From contig CAZKVI010000003.1 of assembly GCA_964556185.1 (NCBI GenBank), forward strand, positions 2,089 to 66,088: a stretch of DNA of 64,000 nucleotides, given 5' to 3'. Both the position numbers and the translations under genes were made by a program. Under the pieces are notes generated by a model. The model made no database searches, was not told the origin of the DNA, and saw only the letters and a list, made by a program, of their open reading frames with translations. The DNA is from an uncultured Methanosarcinales archaeon. GTDB taxonomy: Archaea > Nanobdellota > Nanobdellia > Woesearchaeales > DSVV01. Within the stretch, counting starts at the first letter, position 1. Each line of letters starts with the position of its first letter. This document shows positions 7,453 through 57,658 of the stretch, piece after piece.

Positions 7453-8769
7453 ACATAACATATGCTCTCTGAAGAAATTCATCTTCCGAGGGTATTTATT
7501 TATTTTTTCTATTGTTTTCTTATAATTATTTCTTAATTTAATAGCTTCTTTATTAGTCAATCCTGAAGAAACTTCATAAGTTAATCTAGGCTCCAATACA
7601 GTTCTTTGTTCTTCAATAATCTTAGTTATTTTGAATTTCTTTGGGTTTTTGTATACTTGAGAATCTTTTTGCAAACCAAATATTGAAACAGAGACTAAAT
7701 CAATATATTCATCATTATCTTTTAAGAATTGAATAGTTTCTAAGAATTCTTCTCTAGTTTCCCCTGGAAAACCAAACATTATGTAGACTACATTCTTTAT
7801 TCCTACTTCATGTGAATGTTTTAATACTTTTTCAACTTCTTCTTTGTTTGTTCCTTTGTTCATTAATTTCAAAACTCTATTATTTCCAGACTCAACACCC
7901 CAAATAACCATTGATAAACCAGATTCTTTTAATTTAACTAATGTTTCTTTGTTAATATCTTTTGGTTTTAATTGACAAGTGTAATTAACTTTTAATGGTT
8001 TTAAAACATTAGCTATTTCTAATAATCTTTTCTCATGTATCATGTCATCAATTAAAAAGAAATGTTTTTGTTTTGATTTCTTAATTGTTTGTTTTATTAA
8101 TTCTAAATTATATTCACAATAAGGTTGATTTGTAAAATGTGTACAAAAAGTACATCCTTTATAATAACAAGTTGATGATGTTTTAATTGGAATAACTGGT
8201 TCTGGACAAAAATACTCTTTTAGATTGTAAATAGAAAAATCAGGAACAATTTCACAGTTTAATTCATCATGTTTCACTTCTTCACCAATATATTTCAATA
8301 ATTCAACTTCATTATTCAAACACTTGGCCAGAGATTTTAATTTATCATTAACAGCAGGCCCACCAATTACAACATTCTTTAATTCTTTCAATAAAGCATA
8401 TGCATAAAATGCTTGACTTGAATAAACTAAACTAAATAAAACCAAATCAGGTTTCTTTTCTTGAATTTTCTTTAACATTTCTTCAAACAATTCTGGTTTT
8501 TCACCATTTACAACTGCTCTATTATTTTTCAGATATAATTTTGAAGTTATTTTGTTAAATTCTGTTGTTGTTTTTTCATAATCATCAAATTTACCTTCTT
8601 GGTAGTATTTATGATACTCTGGAAATTTCTTTTTATGAAATTCTAAATTCAAATCTAATACATCAATATTATGCTTTGAATTAGCCTTTAGAAATGAAGC
8701 TAAATAAGTCAATGAATAAGGAGGACTCGCAGGAGTACAAAACGGTAAATATACTAGTAATATGTTCAT
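7444..8769 (-). CDS. B12-binding-domain radical SAM protein
   Basis: The N-terminus is a Rossmann-like B12-binding region. 'CYYKGCTFCTH' is the CxxxCxxC radical-SAM cluster motif, followed by 'VIWGVESGN'. Confidence 0.75.
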   Translation of the reverse strand: MNILLVYLPFCTPASPPYSLTYLASFLKANSKHNIDVLDLNLEFHKKKFPEYHKYYQEGKFDDYEKTTTEFNKITSKLYLKNNRAVVNGEKPELFEEMLKKIQEKKPDLVLFSLVYSSQAFYAYALLKELKNVVIGGPAVNDKLKSLAKCLNNEVELLKYIGEEVKHDELNCEIVPDFSIYNLKEYFCPEPVIPIKTSSTCYYKGCTFCTHFTNQPYCEYNLELIKQTIKKSKQKHFFLIDDMIHEKRLLEIANVLKPLKVNYTCQLKPKDINKETLVKLKESGLSMVIWGVESGNNRVLKLMNKGTNKEEVEKVLKHSHEVGIKNVVYIMFGFPGETREEFLETIQFLKDNDEYIDLVSVSIFGLQKDSQVYKNPKKFKITKIIEEQRTVLEPRLTYEVSSGLTNKEAIKLRNNYKKTIEKINKYPRKMNFFREHMLCSI

Positions 8770-12587: not shown

Positions 12588-13892
12588 ATGGTAAAAAGAG
12601 CTGGAATGAAACAAAAGTTAGGAGTAATTAAGGAATTTGAAGACTTAATAGTTGAATATCCTATTATTGGTTCTGTTAATATGACTTCTTTACCAACTAA
12701 AACAGTTCAGCAAATGAGAGCTCAATTAAGAAAAAAAGGCGTTGTCCTTAAAATGAGCAAAAGAAGATTAATTAATATTGCAATAAATAATTGTAAAGAG
12801 AAAAAGAAAGGTATTGAAAATCTTCTACCTGAACTTAAAGGTATGCCAGCATTAATATTCACAAAAGAAAATCCTTTTGCATTATACAAGTTTTTATCTA
12901 AGAATAAATCATCTGCTCCTGCAAAAGCAGGCCAAATAGCTCCAAATGAAATTGTAGTTAAAGCAGGTCCAACAGGTTTTTCACCAGGACCAATTATTGG
13001 AGAACTAGGTGCTGTAGGAATTAAAGCAGGTGTTGATGGTGGAAAGATTGCAATCAAAGCAGATAGTGTTGTAGCTAAAGAAGGAGATGAAATTACAGAA
13101 CAATTAGCAGCAATATTAACAAGACTTGGTATTGAACCAATGGAAATTGGTTTAAACATGGTTGCAGTATTTGAAGAAGGTAATGTTTATGATAGTAAAA
13201 TCTTAGCAATTGATGAAGATGAATACATGAATAACATAACAACAGCAGCAACTTGGGCTTTCAACTTAGCAGTTGAAGCAGCAATACCAACACCAGATAC
13301 AACAGAATTACTATTACAAAAATGTTTCAAAGATTCCAAAGCAGTTGCAATGGAAGGAAATATTATGGCAGATGCTGTTGCAGAAGAATTACTTGCAAAA
13401 GCTGAAAGAGAAATGTTAGCTCTAAAAGCAGAAGCAAATATTAGTGATGCACCAGTAGTTGACAAAGTCAACGAAGAAGCGCAAGCTTCTGTAAAAGAAG
13501 AAGTTAAAGAAGAACCAAAAGCTGAAGAAAAACCAGCTGAAGAAGCAAAAGAAACAGAAACAAAAGAAGTTTCCGAACTTTCCGAGGGAAAGCAAGAAGC
13601 TGATAAAGCTTCTGTGGGAAACGAAGAAGTCGCAGAGACTTCTGAAGAAAAACCAGCAGAAACTACAGAAACTAAAGAAGGACCTGAAGCAGAAGGAGCT
13701 GATGAGGCACCTAAAGCAGAAGAAAAACCAGCTGAACCTGCACCAGCAGAGGAAGCAAAAGCTGAAGAGAAAGCTGATGAGGCTAAACCTGAAGCTAAAG
13801 AAGAAGCTGCACCAGAAGAACCAGCTAAAGAAGAACCTAAAGCTGAAGAAGCTCCTGCAAAAGCAGAAGATAAACCAGCTGATGAATCATAA
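12588..13892 (+). CDS. rplP0: 50S ribosomal stalk protein P0 (L10) with a long E/K/A/P-rich C-terminal extension
   Basis: The N-terminal 280 aa are typical archaeal P0. The C-terminal ~140 aa are low-complexity and end 'AEDKPADES' rather than the GLGALFG-type tail. Confidence 0.9.
13576..13617. repeat. copy of the 42-nt double-hairpin module (inside the P0 coding sequence)
   Basis: 'aactttccgagggaaagcaagaagctgataaagcttctgtgg' is 36/42 identical to 53151-53192. The stem differences are compensatory (CT..AG versus TC..GA). Confidence 0.7.
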
Positions 13893-13933: not shown

Positions 13934-14245
13934 ATGGAATACGTTTATGCCGCAATGTTAATCCACAAAGCAGGTGGAAAAGTTGATGAAGCTAATGTTA
14001 AAAAAGTTTTAGAAGCAGCCGGAGTTAAAGCTGATGATGCAAGAATCAAAGCTTTAGTCGCAGCTCTCGATGGTGTCAATATTGACGAAGCAGTCGAGAA
14101 AGCAGCAGCAGCTCCTGTCGCAGCCGCACCAGCAGCTGCTCCAGCAGAAGGAGACGCAGCACCAGCTGAAGCTAAAAAAGACGAAGCTAAAGAAGAAGAG
14201 AAAAAAGAGGAAGCAGCAGCTGGCCTTGGAGCTCTTTTCGGATAA
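13934..14245 (+). CDS. rpl12: 50S ribosomal stalk protein P1 (L12)
   Basis: Starts '[15 protein letters not shown]' and ends '[12 protein letters not shown]'. SD 'aaggagga' lies 7 nt upstream of ATG 13934. Confidence 0.9.
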
Positions 14246-14307
14246 AGGCTTTTTAGCCTTTTTTTATTTTATTTTTAATAGAAGTTGACAACGCCAAGTG
14301 AGATCTA

Positions 14308-16640: not shown

Positions 16641-17021
16641 TTATTCAAACACCAAATATTTTTTTTGTCTTAGGAAGACTTTCCTTCCTGTCAATCTTTT
16701 TTTCAACTCTGTATCTTGCGTTGCAATAATGTAATCATCATTTAACCTTACTAATACATCATCAACATAGTCATCAGAGTCTTCTATTAACACATTGATT
16801 TTCTTTGCGTCAATTAAACTCAAAGCAAGCTTAGCTTCCCTCGAATCCTTGCCACGGCCCCTTTCCTGGATTCTCTCCAGTTCTTGCTTGGACTTTTCCA
16901 AGACAAAAAGCTCATAGGGGAAATCACACATTTCCTCAAACTTCTCAAAGATATCTACACCAAGACTGGCTGGTATCATCAAAAAGTTTGTATCAAGTAT
17001 GATTTTCTTTGCCACAGGCAT
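16641..17021 (-). CDS. PIN-domain protein (Fcf1/Utp24-like)
   Basis: 'ILDTNFLM' is the first acidic PIN motif and 'IIATQDTELKKRL' follows. This is the conserved neighbour of rpoE' in archaea. Confidence 0.7.
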   Translation of the reverse strand: MPVAKKIILDTNFLMIPASLGVDIFEKFEEMCDFPYELFVLEKSKQELERIQERGRGKDSREAKLALSLIDAKKINVLIEDSDDYVDDVLVRLNDDYIIATQDTELKKRLTGRKVFLRQKKYLVFE

Positions 17022-17164
17022 TTATAGAGAAGATTTGAAGGGGATTTATAAATGTTTAGGTCCTTACTACTATTTTCCATTACATACAGAAGCTAACGCT
17101 TCTTACTTTACTGCGTAAAGTTTATATATGAACTAATCCCTAAAATACTAAAAGAGGGGACAAT

Positions 17165-19261
17165 ATGGCATTCTTTGGATCAGGATATAAAGGAGAAATG
17201 AAAGAGTACTTCTCAAGTCCAGCAGGTTATTTAGGTAGTTTTGGTGATAATCCTAGAGCTCCAAACATAGAAGCACCAATTATAGGTGTGAAAGATCTTG
17301 GCCAGAGCGTTACAGAAGGTCAAAGATTTGGTAGCTTATTACAAACTTCTACAGAAGCAATAAGAAGAGGAGCAGGTAATATGGAACTTGCAACTATTGC
17401 AGGTGGTCAAGAACCAGGCGGTGCAGAATCTTATGGTGTAGAAGCTAGACAAGCACTAAGAGAATTAGCAAGAGCAAATAATATTTACTTTACTTCAGTC
17501 CATTCGCCTGTTCAAGTTGGAAATGTTTCTGGATTTAATCCTCAAGAAAGAGGTTTTAATGATGAATTTAGACATAGAAGTGTTGAAGAAGTTAAAAGAG
17601 CAATTGAATTTGCAGCAGATGTAGGCGCAGGCGCAGTTGTTGTACATACAGGAGAAGCACAAAGAGATATGTCTCAAGCTCCTTGGAATAGAGAAATTGC
17701 TCCAGGACTGATGGAAATGATGAGTTTTGAAGAAGAACCAGGCAGACAAGTTCTTTATATGGTAGACAGAAGAAATGGTAAATTAATTACAGAAGTTAGA
17801 AAATCTCAAATTGTTTTCGAACCAGAATATGAAAGAGTAGAAATAGCAAACGGTGATTGGAGATATGTATCTGCAGATGGAGATATATTAGATGAGAATA
17901 ATGTCGACCATCTACTACTGAGAGTACCAAAATGGGATAATGAAAGAGCTAAGTTTAAAACATTTAGAAGAGATTGGGATTGGTTTAAATATAAAGCAGA
18001 ACGTTGGGATAAACTTTATCCAAGACCAGATAAAAGAAACTGGACAGCAGAAGAAATGTTTTTTAGAACACAAATGGAAACCAGAATTTTACAATCAAGA
18101 GGTCATTCTTTATTCTATGCAGGTAGATATGAAAAACAAGTAAAACAAAGAGATAGATTATTGAAAGCATTGGAATATTATGGGGAACTTGAGAAAAATA
18201 TACCTGAAGAAGAACTTTGGAAAATTATGAGAGAAGATACTGTATTTTATGGTGCTGCAGGCCAGATTGTCCACGGTGAAAAGAAAAAACCATCTGAAAT
18301 ATTAAAAGATGAACTTAGAGAAACAAATTTAAGTCTAAGACAGATTCATGAAGCTTCTTCTGCAGCAGACGCGCAAGCGGACGAGTATGAAGAAACCCTA
18401 TTACATGTCATGCCAGTTGTTGATTATGCAAAAGATAAAACATCTAGAAGTTATGCAGAAGCAGGAATCTTAGCAATGGATGTAACCCAAAATAATAAAA
18501 ATGTTCAACAAGATGTTTTTGTTGCTCCAGAAAACCTTTGGCCAGAGATGGGTTATGGAACACACCCTCAAGAATTAATTGAATTAGTGTCTGGTGCAAG
18601 AGAACGAATGGTTCAAATGCTTACAGAACAAATGATACCTGATCCTCACGAGCGAAGAGATGAAAAAGGACACCTTCTTATGGTTCCAAATCCTAATTAT
18701 CAGAAAATGGAGAAAGGCAAAGCACAAGAATATGCAAAAAGACATATTAGAGCAACATTTGATACACAACATTTAGGTATGTGGTGGAAACATTTTCAAC
18801 CTTTACCAGGAGAAACAAGAGATAAAAGAAGAGGACGTTTTAAAAAATGGTTTAAGTCTCAAGTTAAAGATATGTTAAAAAAAGATATTCTTGGTCATGT
18901 GCATGCAGTCGATGCTCTTGGTGGTGGTCATCATCACTTACCAATTGGTCAAGGTGACTTACCAGTTAAATGGGCCTTAGAATATCTAAAAAAGAAAGGT
19001 TTCAAAGGAACAATGGTTTCAGAAGGTCATGAAGAAGAATCAAGATTTGGTGCAGGAAGACAATTAACAGCTTCTTGGAGACACTTAGGCACAAATATTA
19101 CTGGTTCTCATGCTGGTGCAGGTGGTGCTGTACCAGGTGGTGGAAATTGGAATGATATTCAATATTCTTATTTCAGAAATATGCAATCTCCTTATTTTAT
19201 TTTCGGAGCTTATTCACCAAGCAATGATTGGCAATTATGGTCACAAGTACCAATGGAATGA
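17165..19261 (+). CDS. xylose-isomerase-like TIM-barrel (AP endonuclease 2 superfamily) protein with a very large internal insertion
   Basis: The motif order 'FTSVHSP', 'AVVVHTGE', 'FDTQHLGMWW', 'GHVHAVDALGGGHHHLPIGQGDLP', 'MVSEGHEE' matches Endo IV/sugar-isomerase barrels. About 350 aa of charged helical sequence lie between the second and third motifs. Confidence 0.55.
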   Translation: MAFFGSGYKGEMKEYFSSPAGYLGSFGDNPRAPNIEAPIIGVKDLGQSVTEGQRFGSLLQTSTEAIRRGAGNMELATIAGGQEPGGAESYGVEARQALRELARANNIYFTSVHSPVQVGNVSGFNPQERGFNDEFRHRSVEEVKRAIEFAADVGAGAVVVHTGEAQRDMSQAPWNREIAPGLMEMMSFEEEPGRQVLYMVDRRNGKLITEVRKSQIVFEPEYERVEIANGDWRYVSADGDILDENNVDHLLLRVPKWDNERAKFKTFRRDWDWFKYKAERWDKLYPRPDKRNWTAEEMFFRTQMETRILQSRGHSLFYAGRYEKQVKQRDRLLKALEYYGELEKNIPEEELWKIMREDTVFYGAAGQIVHGEKKKPSEILKDELRETNLSLRQIHEASSAADAQADEYEETLLHVMPVVDYAKDKTSRSYAEAGILAMDVTQNNKNVQQDVFVAPENLWPEMGYGTHPQELIELVSGARERMVQMLTEQMIPDPHERRDEKGHLLMVPNPNYQKMEKGKAQEYAKRHIRATFDTQHLGMWWKHFQPLPGETRDKRRGRFKKWFKSQVKDMLKKDILGHVHAVDALGGGHHHLPIGQGDLPVKWALEYLKKKGFKGTMVSEGHEEESRFGAGRQLTASWRHLGTNITGSHAGAGGAVPGGGNWNDIQYSYFRNMQSPYFIFGAYSPSNDWQLWSQVPME

Positions 19262-29236: not shown

Positions 29237-29356
29237 CGGGCCCACGGGGATTCGAACCCCGGGCCTATGGCTGTCTGTGCGTAAGCAAAGACCCAGTGGA
29301 TCTTTGATCCTAACGCGTAAGAGGCCACCGCTCTAACCAGGCTGAGCTATGAGCCC
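29237..29356 (-). tRNA. tRNA-Lys(CUU) with a 45-nt canonical (37/38) intron
   Basis: Acceptor GGGCTCA/TGGGCCC. D arm GCTC-AGCCTGGTTA-GAGC. Anticodon stem GTGGC/GCCAT with loop CTCTTA|A. T arm CGGGG-TTCGAAT-CCCCG. G73. Confidence 0.75.
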
Positions 29357-29485: not shown

Positions 29486-30367
29486 TTATCCTTGATAAAA
29501 ACCAATTAACTGTCTTTGTCTCTTAACATGTCTTAATTTTCTTAAGGCTTTTACTTCGATTTGTCTTATTCTTTCTCTTGTTAAATCAAATACTTGACCA
29601 ATCTCTTCAAGAGAATAATGACGAGGATGATCAATTCCATATCTCATTTTCATAACTTTTTCTTCTCTGGGTGTTAATTCAGCAAGTACACTTCTAACAG
29701 CCTTTGCTAAATCAGAATCCCCTACATTTTCATCAGGTCTTCGAACACTAGCTCCTTCTATAAAATCACCTATGGTTGCATCTGATTCATCACCAACTTT
29801 TTGCTCTAATGATAATGGTTCTCTTGCAAGCCTATAAATATCTTCAATTTTTTCAACTGGTTCACCTAACCAATCTGCAATTTCTTCAGAAGTTGGTTCT
29901 CTACCAAGATCAGTAACAAGTTTTCGAGCCGTTCTTCTAACTTTAGTAACCATTTCTAATTTATAAATTGGAATTCTTATTGTTCTTACTGTAGCTTCTA
30001 TTCCTCTAATAACACTTTGTCTAATCCACCAAGAAGCATATGTAGAAAATTTATATCCTCTTCTATATTCAAATTTTTCAACAGCTCTTATTAAACCTAA
30101 ATTACCTTCTTGAATTAAATCACCAAGTGGCAAGCCTCTATATTGGTATTGTCTTGCAATACTAACAACTAGTCTTAAATTGCCTTTTATTAAATCTTCT
30201 TTAGCTGTAGCTGCTTCATAAGGAGTGCCTTCTTCCATTGTTGTAGCTAATCTAACTTCATCATCTCTAGATAATAATGCTACAGCCCCCATTTGATTCA
30301 TATACTTCCTTAGAACTCTAGGATCATCTCTATATCTTGGCCCACCTTGATAATGACTAACACCCAT
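29486..30367 (-). CDS. bacterial-type RNA polymerase sigma-70 family factor (regions 2, 3 and 4; no region 1.1)
   Basis: '[61 protein letters not shown]' covers regions 2.1-2.4. '[13 protein letters not shown]' is region 3.0. '[15 protein letters not shown]' and '[29 protein letters not shown]' cover regions 4.1-4.2. Confidence 0.9.
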
Positions 30368-43206: not shown

Positions 43207-43300
43207 TATACTAAAAGTGATTAATTTTCGTACAAATTAATCACTTTTGTATATACCAGAGTGTAAAATAATTTGACTTTATTTTACACTTTAAGTATAT
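43207..43300. repeat. palindrome-rich intergenic module, copy 1
   Basis: 'tatactAAAAGTGATTAATTTtcgtacAAATTAATCACTTTTgtatata...AGTGTAAAATAAtttgactTTATTTTACACTttaagtatat'. It shares its ends and core with 50041-50116. Confidence 0.7.
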
Positions 43301-53072: not shown

Positions 53073-53150
53073 TTACTTTTAGTATAAAATCAAACTAAAC
53101 ATTTATATATACTATTTCTTAGAAATTATACTATTGTGGGTAATCAATTA

Positions 53151-53192
53151 AACTTTCCGAAGGAAAGCAAGAAGTCGATGAGACTTCTGTGG
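53151..53192. repeat. copy of the 42-nt double-hairpin module at the 5' end of gene 53178
   Basis: 'aaCTTTCCgaaGGAAAGcaAGAAGTCgATGaGACTTCTgtgg'. ATG 53178 lies in the loop of the second hairpin. Confidence 0.7.
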
Positions 53193-54143
53193 AAGAGGAT
53201 AATATTAGTTTTATCTATATTTCTTGCTACATTGCAGACTACTCTAGCTTATTCTTGGAGTGAGTTTGTAAGCACAACAATGAAAATATACAATGCTCAA
53301 GCAGATTTCTTTTCTAATATATTTAATGCAGCACCTCCTTTATTCCATGCACTCTTTTATTGGCTTTTTATCTATATTGCAATCTTCAGAAAATATGTAA
53401 AACCAAAATTAGGAGCAGGTTTTGCATTGGGAATGCCTGTTTTATTAGCTCTTGGGGTTGTTACAGCTGAACGCTTAACAGGAGTAAGCTTTTTTTGGAT
53501 GTTTTTAATCTTTTTTGGAATATATAAAACATTGTTTGTAATTCTTGCATTCAGAAAAGCTAATTTTCCAGTAATTTTAATTGGATCATTAGCTTTTATT
53601 ATTGCATTTGTTCTTTTATTATTTTACCAACCAGCATGGTTTATTGATTTTAGACAAGATCATCCACTTATTATGTTATTAGGATATATTTTGTTTGCAA
53701 TCTTTTCAATAATTACTTTATTTGGTGCTTTTAGATACATAATTGGTGGAGGTTATAGTAATATTCAATGGCCACCTCCATTTAGACAAACATATAAAGA
53801 TTTATATGGTGATCCAGGATCCTCCTCCTCTTCAGGTCAATCAACACCAAATATGTCAAGATTACATAGAAAAGCTGAAAAGTTTCTTGCAAATTCTGCA
53901 GAATACGCTGCTGCAGAACAAAAGTATGCACAAATGAATGCATCACAAAGAGCAAAAGTAGAAAAAGATATGCAAGATAGTCGAATTTCTTTGATAGCAA
54001 GGGGAACTGCAATAAGAAATCATAAAAAATATGAAAGAGATGTTCCACAAGATGTTAAACATAGATTTGAAACAGCATTTAATGCTATTATGACTCAAGG
54101 TGGCTCACATGGTGGAGCAGGTGGCGGAGGCCCTGGCCATTAA
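53178..54143 (+). CDS. multi-pass membrane protein with a helical cytosolic tail, paralog of 52470
   Basis: ATG 53178 gives the signal-like 'MRLLWKRIILVLSIFLATLQTTLA'. 'IFNAAPPLFHALFYWLFIYIAIFRK' parallels the upstream paralog. It ends 'GGSHGGAGGGGPGH'. The listed GTG 53136 start is less likely. Confidence 0.5.
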   Translation: MRLLWKRIILVLSIFLATLQTTLAYSWSEFVSTTMKIYNAQADFFSNIFNAAPPLFHALFYWLFIYIAIFRKYVKPKLGAGFALGMPVLLALGVVTAERLTGVSFFWMFLIFFGIYKTLFVILAFRKANFPVILIGSLAFIIAFVLLLFYQPAWFIDFRQDHPLIMLLGYILFAIFSIITLFGAFRYIIGGGYSNIQWPPPFRQTYKDLYGDPGSSSSSGQSTPNMSRLHRKAEKFLANSAEYAAAEQKYAQMNASQRAKVEKDMQDSRISLIARGTAIRNHKKYERDVPQDVKHRFETAFNAIMTQGGSHGGAGGGGPGH

Positions 54144-57348: not shown

Positions 57349-57406
57349 TATCTATATTAGTTATTCTAAAAAGCTCTAAATAATCTTCTTTTAACTAGAA
57401 ACGGTT

Positions 57407-57518
57407 AAAAAACCCCGCAAACACTCCCGAAGGAATGTTTGCGCGGGAAAAAGAGGTGATCGTGATTGTTATCTGGCCAATGGCCAATAAATCCCCAAAT
57501 TAGCTTAAGATACCTACT
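57407..57518 (-). ncRNA. candidate small RNA (~112 nt) with its own BRE/TATA and a hairpin plus U6 terminator
   Basis: On the minus strand, 'GGAAAGGTTTAAATA' (57555-57541) lies 22 nt upstream of the predicted start. The 3' end is 'CCCGCGCAAACAUUCCUUCGGGAGUGUUUGCGGGG' followed by UUUUUU. No ORF is present. Confidence 0.35.
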
Positions 57519-57658
57519 TCATTTATTAAGACCATAATCATATTTAAACCTTTCCATTCTAGAGTGGTGACATTTGTTTAGGAGTTTAGAGTGAACTTGG
57601 GATACATACTTCATGTTACCGGAAAATTTATATACCTTATTTCAGAGAAATAAGACTT

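Follow-up and report, generated by a model that had tools for sequence, protein, structure and literature searches.

A nested two-hairpin unit of 39 nt in the ribosomal protein P0 gene of a Woesearchaeota archaeon, best read as a minimal palindromic mobile element

The window described here is the whole 64,000-nt stretch of contig CAZKVI010000003.1, from an uncultured archaeon, to which all positions below refer. It represents archaeal DNA of 31% GC and carries an L1-P0-P1 ribosomal protein operon and intron-containing tRNA genes. Its P0 homologues, which are Woesearchaeota L10 proteins with the domains PF00466 and PF17777, place it in the Woesearchaeota (DPANN). The P0 (uL10) protein ends in a long C-terminal tail rich in E, K, A and P, and three units of a small two-hairpin element are encoded there (E1, E2 and E3, Table 1). 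Further units were identified in two intergenic spacers and at the start of a gene for a membrane protein (copy 2). The P0 segment is, with a probability of roughly 0.8, a copy of a family of very small, non-autonomous mobile DNA elements of a narrow Woesearchaeota clade.

A sequence-only reading of the window had reported that the 42-mers at 13576-13617 (in P0) and 53151-53192 are identical at 36 of 42 positions, and recomputation returned the same value. When the window was shuffled 12 times with its dinucleotides preserved, the best direct match between any two 42-mers reached 30-33. The real window contained just seven diagonals of at least 34/42, the others being paralogous gene ends, low-complexity repeats within P0 and another repeat family. 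The fold of either copy has the same pair of hairpins, at -14.7 and -14.6 kcal/mol (z about -3.1), the first of which (H1) takes the form CTTTCC-GAR-GGAAAG. In the second hairpin (H2), the compensatory change described earlier, AGAAGCT/AGCTTCT versus AGAAGTC/GACTTCT, is present between the copies.

To follow the family, a search pattern (TTCCGARGGAA-N4-AGRAG-N5..11-CTYCT) and a covariance model built from 14 copies were used. Within the window, the model recovered five full copies and one half copy, and the next-best match scored 17.5 bits. Over the window and the contigs of relatives (designated L with a number below), 32 matches of 21-74 bits were obtained. Applied to 200 kb of unrelated DNA as a control, the model matched only sites selected with the pattern, all at 27 bits or less. 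A scan of metagenome contigs yielded 13 exact pattern matches in 11 low-GC contigs, 9 of which share their source metagenome with a close relative of the window (L001); the model confirmed 10 of the 11, the match in L057 being weak. Among 185,579 species genomes, a set without the window's own genome, the pattern gave 31 chance-level matches in unrelated bacteria, and a Pacearchaeota match (L014) from that scan was imperfect, at 19 bits. Two scans of viral contigs produced one pattern match each, neither recognised by the model. The conserved block of the family measures only about 39-42 nt, and the flanks are unrelated. Further copies do exist in the window and in relatives' contigs, and the closest P0 orthologues lack the segment, so that the outcome which the earlier reading had named as refuting it did not occur. 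Chance similarity between purine-rich, low-complexity coding sequences, a view that the highly repetitive P0 tail could encourage, is already refuted by the 36/42 identity against a shuffle best of 33, and by 32 model matches against none in control DNA beyond pre-selected sites; we regard its probability as negligible.

The boundaries of the unit were obtained from P0 itself. Deletion of 13578-13616 (39 nt, 13 codons) fuses GTTTCCGAA and GGAAACGAAGAAGTCGCAGAGACTTCTGAA, and the fused flanks are 47/51 identical to a copy in the DnaK tail of L100, with differences only in the H2 loop and the flanks. The P0 copy first reported (E3) is thus nested: it was inserted into E2, an older copy, whose H1 loop it splits (GAA^G). 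This nesting accounts for the outer stem GUUUCC/GGAAAC seen in the minimum-energy fold and for the third hairpin noted previously at 13625-13643, which is real, as its partial model match indicates, and is not a separate structure: it is the H2 of the older copy. The element can therefore insert into itself, and the unambiguous junctions of the nested copy fix the unit as starting at the first base of H1 and ending with GTG, three bases past H2. Together with E1, the three units contribute 38 residues to the P0 tail. The E1 subfamily was also observed in the uL22 tail of L068 and in a protein of L066.

Units are 36-44 nt long, typically 39 nt or 13 codons. Each begins with H1, whose 6-bp stem is free in sequence and whose loop is usually GAA; then come 2 nt of spacer, H2 (AGAAGnn...nnCTTCT) and a tail of the form GTR. 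H2 is followed by GTG in 11, GTA in 11, GAA in 4 and GCA in 3 of the 32 matches. The 5' flank is AAA in 17, GAA in 6 and ATA in 4 (27/32), and the nested site reads GAA^G. As its two ends, CTTTCC... and ...CTGTG, show, the unit lacks terminal inverted repeats, and no target duplication was found at the nested site or at the other sites compared.

Table 1. Positions of the element units, the sites empty in the window and the two host genes
Feature	Positions	Strand	Details
Ribosomal protein P0 (uL10), host gene	12588..13892	+	434 aa, from the open reading frame list; three element units in tail
Unit E1 in P0	13458..13493	+	36 nt, 12 codons; GTTGAC-AAA-GTCAAC, GA, AGAAGC-GCAA-GCTTCT, GTA; model match 13454-13498, 33.4 bits, E 1.6e-9
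Outer unit E2 in P0, 5' part	13569..13577	+	H1 5' arm GTTTCC and loop GAA
Inner unit E3 in P0 (first reported copy)	13578..13616	+	39 nt, 13 codons; model match 13574-13621, 64.1 bits
Outer unit E2 in P0, 3' part	13617..13646	+	H1 3' arm GGAAAC, spacer GA, H2 AGAAGTC-GCAGA-GACTTCT, tail GAA; partial model match 13624-13643, 19.7 bits
Empty site, spacer between P1 and next gene	14270..14290	.	35-column gap opposite L001 element
Intergenic unit	17085..17120	-	36 nt; CTTTAC-GCA-GTAAAG, TA, AGAAGC-GTTA-GCTTCT, GTA; model match 17080-17124, 38.4 bits
Empty site, tRNA-Met(CAU) with intron of about 50 nt	48773..48897	-	Rfam tRNA 54.6 bits, 52-nt anticodon-loop insert
Intergenic unit	51883..51926	+	44 nt, long H1 loop; GTTTACG-(8 nt)-CGTAAAC, TA, AGAAGTC-GAA-GACTTCT, GTA; model match 51879-51931, 36.3 bits
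Copy 2	53153..53191	+	39 nt; CTTTCC-GAA-GGAAAG, CA, AGAAGTC-GATGA-GACTTCT, GTG; model match 53149-53196, 72.8 bits
Copy 2 host gene	53136..54143	+	multi-pass membrane protein, no Pfam match

The stems are maintained by paired changes. At stem positions that the search pattern left unfixed, the alignment of 14 copies showed 16 double-sided changes and no one-sided change. In the alignment of all 32 matches, which is model-fitted and hence biased toward structure, the effect is nonetheless large: 96.2% of cells are paired, and 11 of the 13 pairs show double-sided changes (50 cells). None of 500 shuffles equalled the observed covariation, and shifting the partner column by one lowered pairing to about 52%. 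Non-Watson-Crick cells lie almost all at helix ends, the internal stem pairs being essentially all Watson-Crick. Cells with G.T or T.G number 5 and those with A.C or C.A number 6; this lack of a G.T excess hints at a palindrome constrained on both strands, which it fits better than a helix of RNA from one strand. The H1 stem differs completely among subfamilies (CTTTCC/GGAAAG, GGTTCC/GGAACC, GTTGAC/GTCAAC, CTTTAC/GTAAAG and TGTTGC/GCAACA), while NAAGAAG, from the spacer into H2, and the tail CTTCTGT do not change across them. Recognition of the palindromes as sites for dimeric DNA-binding proteins was ruled out, as the H1 sequence varies freely while its pairing is kept. The proposal that the hairpins are under selection thus stands as far as the stems are constrained across the 32 matches. 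The particular change between the two window copies is not in-situ co-evolution; it reflects different subfamilies or master copies.

Comparison with relatives revealed sites that are filled in one genome and empty in another. In L056, a syntenic contig about 90% identical to the window, an element lies within the tRNA-Met(CAU) intron; the exons are identical and the pairwise alignment leaves a 39-nt gap in the window. The spacer downstream of P1 contains a reverse-oriented copy in L001 (7161-7208, 52.7 bits) and none in the window. The 17085-17120 unit lies between a divergent PIN-domain gene (16641-17021, minus strand) and an open reading frame (ORF) starting at 17165 on the plus strand, and by eye two TATA-like boxes flank it. 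In this spacer, the window and L001 hold different, oppositely oriented copies flanking a shared TTTCCATTACA, which are two independent insertions in two lineages. Near-identical copies also occur at unrelated loci, as exemplified by the copy 2 sequence, found again in a PPDK_N-domain protein of L066. The 51883-51926 unit is antisense relative to the neighbouring minus-strand genes, and its region is missing from the syntenic L056. Taken together, these comparisons show an indel unit that is dispersed, constrained in structure, recently active and tolerated when in-frame.

Two of these loci have further features. Around the last of them, window 51332-51955 compared with L056 6757-6981 has about 400 nt extra adjoining the copy, and the region is an indel hotspot. 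The window also contains three tRNA genes with long introns (about 32-52 nt), all on the minus strand (29237-29356, 48650-48763 and 48773-48897), which ARAGORN missed and only Rfam found. In the tRNA-Met intron, a C-box-like GUGAUGA stands directly 5' of the site filled in the relative, and the enlarged tRNA-Met of L056 escapes the Rfam tRNA model.

For the P0 copies, a clean empty site could not be defined against orthologues, as the P0 tails are too divergent, and the nested 39-nt insertion was used in its place. Within the clade, P0 length ranges from 280 to 597 amino acids owing to the hypervariable C-terminal tail. The closest P0 orthologues (core identity 84-92%), which the earlier reading had proposed for comparison, lack the element segment. 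A more distant orthologue in L004 (68%) carries two modules of the same architecture with other stems: GTTTCC/GGAAAC with AGGAGC/GCTCCT, and GCTTCC/GGAAGC with AGAAGC/GCTTCT. Relatives keep the P0 C-terminus ..KPADES downstream of the inserts, which implies that translation of P0 passes through the element units. The window P0 ends ...EDKPADES (13860-13892) without the C-terminal stalk motif that P1 retains (14225-14245), suggesting that mimicry of the P1 tail by P0 has been lost in this clade. Long E/K/A/P-rich C-terminal extensions resembling that of P0 were also seen in uL22, eS1, S24e and DnaK of the clade (L068 607-1332, L080 1746-2582, L100 5770-7755 and L004 16490-16939). Tail fragments such as GAAGCACCAGCTGAAG look like decayed H2 hairpins, and such tails may be partly built of old element copies.

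The distribution of copies relative to genes was then considered. About 20 of the 32 sampled matches are intragenic, in a sample biased by the search pattern. Around 16 lie in one sense frame within long ORFs, about 11 are non-coding in both orientations, and a second sense frame is used by two independent copies. No antisense copies within real ORFs were found among the 32 matches. As had been proposed, RPE-like units (after the Rickettsia palindromic elements, RPEs) sit in-frame within essential genes, here those for P0, uL22, eS1, Hsp70, Rpb7 and S24e. Besides P0, the hosts confirmed by Pfam are uL22, eS1 (S3Ae), Hsp70/DnaK and the PPDK_N-domain protein; further hosts are S24e, Rpb7, a coiled-coil protein and a secreted Cys-rich protein, and an FtsY-like protein was recognised by eye only.

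The spacer codon separates coding from non-coding copies. In the approximately 16 internal copies read in the acidic frame, it is CAA, GAA or AAA and never TAA (one weak match has TTA), while TAA occupies this position in 8 of about 11 non-coding copies. Since TAA is shunned in coding copies and frequent in non-coding ones, ribosomes must read the coding copies. The same avoidance ruled out their removal as bulge-helix-bulge (BHB) or spliced mini-introns. The element TAA also serves as the stop codon of eS1 in L080 and of Rpb7 in L004, where the former Rpb7 C-terminus is left as an untranslated remnant. Survival within genes would depend on a unit length that is a multiple of three. The acidic frame encodes [LVGA]SEG[KNT][QE]E[VA]x[EK][TA]SV, a hydrophilic peptide that would be tolerated in disordered E/K-rich tails and linkers, and the basic peptide of the other sense frame would be tolerated at N-termini. 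Copies bearing TAA last only outside ORFs or at the extreme end of an ORF, there as its stop codon.

That about half of the matches (~16/32) encode the same acidic peptide in long ORFs could suggest selection of a short linear motif (xLSEGKQEVDETSVEE) in disordered tails, the nucleotide likeness being a by-product. Non-coding copies effectively refute this explanation, whose probability we consider close to nil. The earlier reading had placed the conservation at the nucleotide and not the protein level, and this proved correct: the two window copies are read in different frames (copy 2 reads FPKESKKSMRLLW in the frame of ORF 53136-54143), and other copies occupy spacers in both orientations and a tRNA intron. 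The codons CTT, TCC, AAG, GTC and GTG, which are rare, are common to all copies. Moreover, flanking residues covary as V..N, L..K, G..T and A..S, a pattern that has no protein-level logic and makes sense only as base pairs. A profile of the encoded peptide returned nothing at E<=10 against 5.8 billion proteins, a search in which an 18-residue unit cannot reach significance.

Copy 2 differs from the other copies in its persistence. Its host gene has two alternative starts, GTG at 53136, from which the element is read in frame +2, and ATG at 53178 in the H2 loop, which would leave copy 2 partly in the 5' leader. The latter is the start in three of five database gene models (MRLLWKR...), MRLLW being encoded by the H2 3' arm. 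Copy 2 is present in all five database orthologues, down to 75% identity, with starts MRLLWKR... or MGIQLNFPKESKKSMRLLWKR..., and the element with about 60 nt downstream has 100% DNA identity in L056 and L108, even though the L108 protein is 78% identical. Copy 2 is therefore considered old, fixed and probably exapted, and it now forms the 5' end of the membrane-protein gene, to which it probably also gives the start codon and charged N-terminus. The invariant stretch spans window positions 53133-53245, to about 20 codons past copy 2; the invariance beyond the element could come from leader structure, an overlapping frame or recent transfer.

Such persistence bears on whether the hairpin pair is a functional RNA module, selected in transcripts and kept or spread for regulating highly expressed genes. 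Such a module could stabilise mRNA, signal the initiation or pausing of translation, or serve as a site of binding or processing. Consistent with this are the strong stem covariation, the sense orientation of all coding copies, the frequent location near gene ends with H2 right after the stop codon, and copy 2 itself, fixed in five orthologues, located within the most conserved stretch of about 100 nt of the gene, and with a start ATG in the H2 loop. We nevertheless consider a regulatory RNA unlikely. Intergenic copies occur in both orientations, several of them antisense to both neighbours, and one lies between two divergent TATA boxes (by eye). Copy 2 excepted, genomes of about 90% identity already differ in occupancy, a rapid turnover. 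The functions of the host genes are unrelated, no Rfam family matches the element, and G.U is no commoner than A.C. Compared with cis-regulatory RNAs, the family thus shows covarying helices and lacks consistent orientation, site conservation and G.U tolerance.

The best reading is that of a selfish palindromic element that behaves like an RPE and is built like a 'terminal-only' PATE of IS200/IS605 type. Its hairpins would act as recognition features for mobilisation of single-stranded DNA, carried out in trans by an HUH/Y1 transposase (IS200/IS605-type or RAYT-like), and the element would then be a 'terminal-only' PATE-like or REP-like derivative. We infer this mechanism because no transposase was found. 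That absence, which applies to the window ORFs of at least 120 amino acids (no Pfam transposase) and to 20 ORFs chosen by size from contigs of relatives, together about 125 kb of DNA from the lineage, is the first of several observations that weigh against this reading. H1 and H2 are unlike each other, whereas many IS605/PATE ends are alike. The AAA/GAA preference of the 5' flank could merely mirror AT-rich (31% GC), E/K-rich surroundings. All of the approximately 18 coding copies are sense-oriented although antisense frames are open too, which could mean an RNA-level role or strand-specific insertion, and not peptide selection. Copy 2, at 100% identity over about 100 nt against about 83% gene-wide, does not behave selfishly. 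In addition, the search pattern fixed TTCCGARGGAA and AGRAG/CTYCT, so that invariance at these positions is partly by construction.

The missing transposase would also be expected if the units spread through template switching, microhomology-mediated repair or gene conversion between purine-rich sites. Hairpin formation would then drive the copying itself and also 'correct' the stems until they are perfectly complementary. Target and element share purine-rich microhomology (AAGAAG and GAAGA flanks; TCT or CT at two filled/empty junctions), and the host tails are themselves made of GAAGC..GCT-like repeats. We judge this route quite unlikely, as exact 39-nt units with sharp edges occur at non-homologous sites, including AT-rich spacers and the tRNA intron, and their orientation differs in the same spacer of two lineages. 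Correction of quasi-palindromes also leaves subfamilies with a wholly different H1 unexplained.

Palindromic elements inserted in-frame in essential genes were known from Rickettsia, where RPE-1 to RPE-10 (Ogata et al. 2000) are summarised in PMC10969869 and PMC3733652. As far as these summaries describe them, RPEs are likewise dispersed palindromic repeats of reduced, host-dependent genomes; they occur in-frame in unrelated and often essential genes, always with one and the same peptide, which surface or flexible regions apparently tolerate, and their other copies are intergenic. In-frame copies in still-functional ORFs were observed here in the genes for P0, uL22, eS1, Hsp70, S24e, the PPDK_N-domain protein and the coiled-coil protein. 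By the same summaries, RPEs are bacterial and mostly about 100-150 bp long, and the short RPE-4 and RPE-6 carry a CGTC tag, whereas the element is archaeal, 36-44 nt long and without a CGTC or GTAG tag. It also has two separate hairpins and sits in a tRNA intron. Compared by description, the element works like an RPE without being a member of the RPEs, and a sequence relationship would not be expected.

Similarities were also found with REPs (repetitive extragenic palindromes), which, with their RAYT transposases, comprise GTAG- and CGTC-tagged superfamilies described only in bacteria in the survey concerned (PMC3733652). The two are similar in size class (20-40 bp) and share a stem-loop with conserved short tails and variable stems and occasional in-frame intragenic copies; for both, a Y1/HUH enzyme acting in trans is presumed to move single-stranded hairpins. 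A REP consists of one hairpin, usually lies outside genes and is often found in inverted dimers, in contrast to two different stem-loops that are mostly intragenic in our sample. GTAG occurs in a few copies only, 3' rather than 5' of the stem, and no RAYT was detected among the window and relatives' ORFs specified above.

The anatomy is like that of PATEs (palindrome-associated transposable elements), especially the 52-bp 'terminal-only' derivatives of IS605-type transposons in Haloquadratum walsbyi that are possibly mobilised (PMC3119063). Both are archaeal, lack terminal inverted repeats and target duplication, have a palindrome near each end (here H1, which opens the unit, and H2, followed by only 3 nt), are too short for a gene of their own and show strain-specific insertions. 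The 5' flank of the element may be a short preferred target of the IS200/IS605 kind, against a background expectation that is high at 31% GC in E/K-rich coding hosts. PATE palindromes are demonstrably related to resident IS605-type transposons, of which none is known here, and PATEs are not reported in-frame in ribosomal-protein genes; the element is also shorter (39 nt) and the sequences of its two hairpins are not alike. MITEs of prokaryotes, among them archaeal ones from Sulfolobus, Halobacterium and Haloquadratum (PMC10969869), are non-autonomous and multicopy as well, and can make in-frame fusions. They measure 70-300 bp, with terminal inverted repeats of 15-30 bp and usually target-site duplications, neither of which the element has. 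Borg elements of archaea contain tandem repeats that create intrinsically disordered regions (PMC9879509). Both kinds of repeat add disordered hydrophilic sequence to archaeal proteins in multiples of three nucleotides, the Borg repeats as local tandem direct repeats arising in place, the element as a dispersed palindrome moving between unrelated loci.

The earlier reading had known of no archaeal equivalent. For small palindrome-bearing mobile elements as such this does not hold, since Haloquadratum has PATEs, MITEs and SMRs (PMC3119063), and the kind of element is not wholly new. Literature searches, of incomplete coverage and so giving absence of evidence only, found no such element for DPANN and no in-frame palindromic elements in archaeal genes. 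What is notable is the minimal size, the two-hairpin unit, the DPANN host, and the use of ribosomal-protein genes and a tRNA intron as sites.

Other features of the window were recorded alongside. A full-length bacterial-type sigma-70 factor is encoded at 29489-30367 on the minus strand (Pfam regions 1.2, 2, 3 and 4, E 1e-8 to 1e-21), with the intron-bearing tRNA at 29237-29356 just upstream; the gene may have been acquired horizontally or may point to foreign DNA. Another repeat family, unrelated to the element, consists of a near-perfect palindrome, CACTTTTGTATATACAAAAGTG, around a TATA-like core, located at 43236-43272 and 50054-50090 (92% identical) and in L100 at 7774-7868. It may represent a promoter or operator, or another small element. 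The gene-free 310-nt stretch 57349-57658 contains a long GC-rich hairpin, CCCGCAAACACTCCCGAAGGAATGTTTGCGCGGG (about 57413-57447), without an Rfam match, whose fold modestly beats shuffles (z -2.0), and a small RNA missed in annotation may lie there. Two more short direct repeats, at 46596-46667/48257-48328 and 28194-28235/28295-28336 (81% and 35/42 identity, respectively), are possibly paralogous gene ends.

The finding would extend selfish in-frame palindromes in essential genes from Rickettsia and a few other bacteria to archaea. At 39 nt with sharp ends, the element would be among the smallest mobile units described, and its minimal size would make it a tractable substrate for learning which DNA features suffice for mobilisation. 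Annotation is affected in several ways, from the tails of DPANN ribosomal proteins and some start and stop codons to the length of a tRNA intron, which breaks tRNA detection. The element could also be used as a strain-level marker for the population genetics of uncultured Woesearchaeota. A more speculative and unlikely idea is that of a self-sufficient 39-nt 'hairpin parasite' without need of a dedicated transposase, copied by host replication, repair or RNA processing, whose repeated insertion and decay may have built the lineage-specific acidic tails of P0, uL22, eS1, S24e and the chaperones of these DPANN archaea. If so, a nucleotide-level parasite would be a main source of new disordered protein sequence, and it would occasionally provide new start and stop codons too. 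For the mobile element as preferred here, occurrence in a second reduced-genome, reportedly host-dependent lineage suggests that tolerance of such parasites arose convergently where selection is weak.

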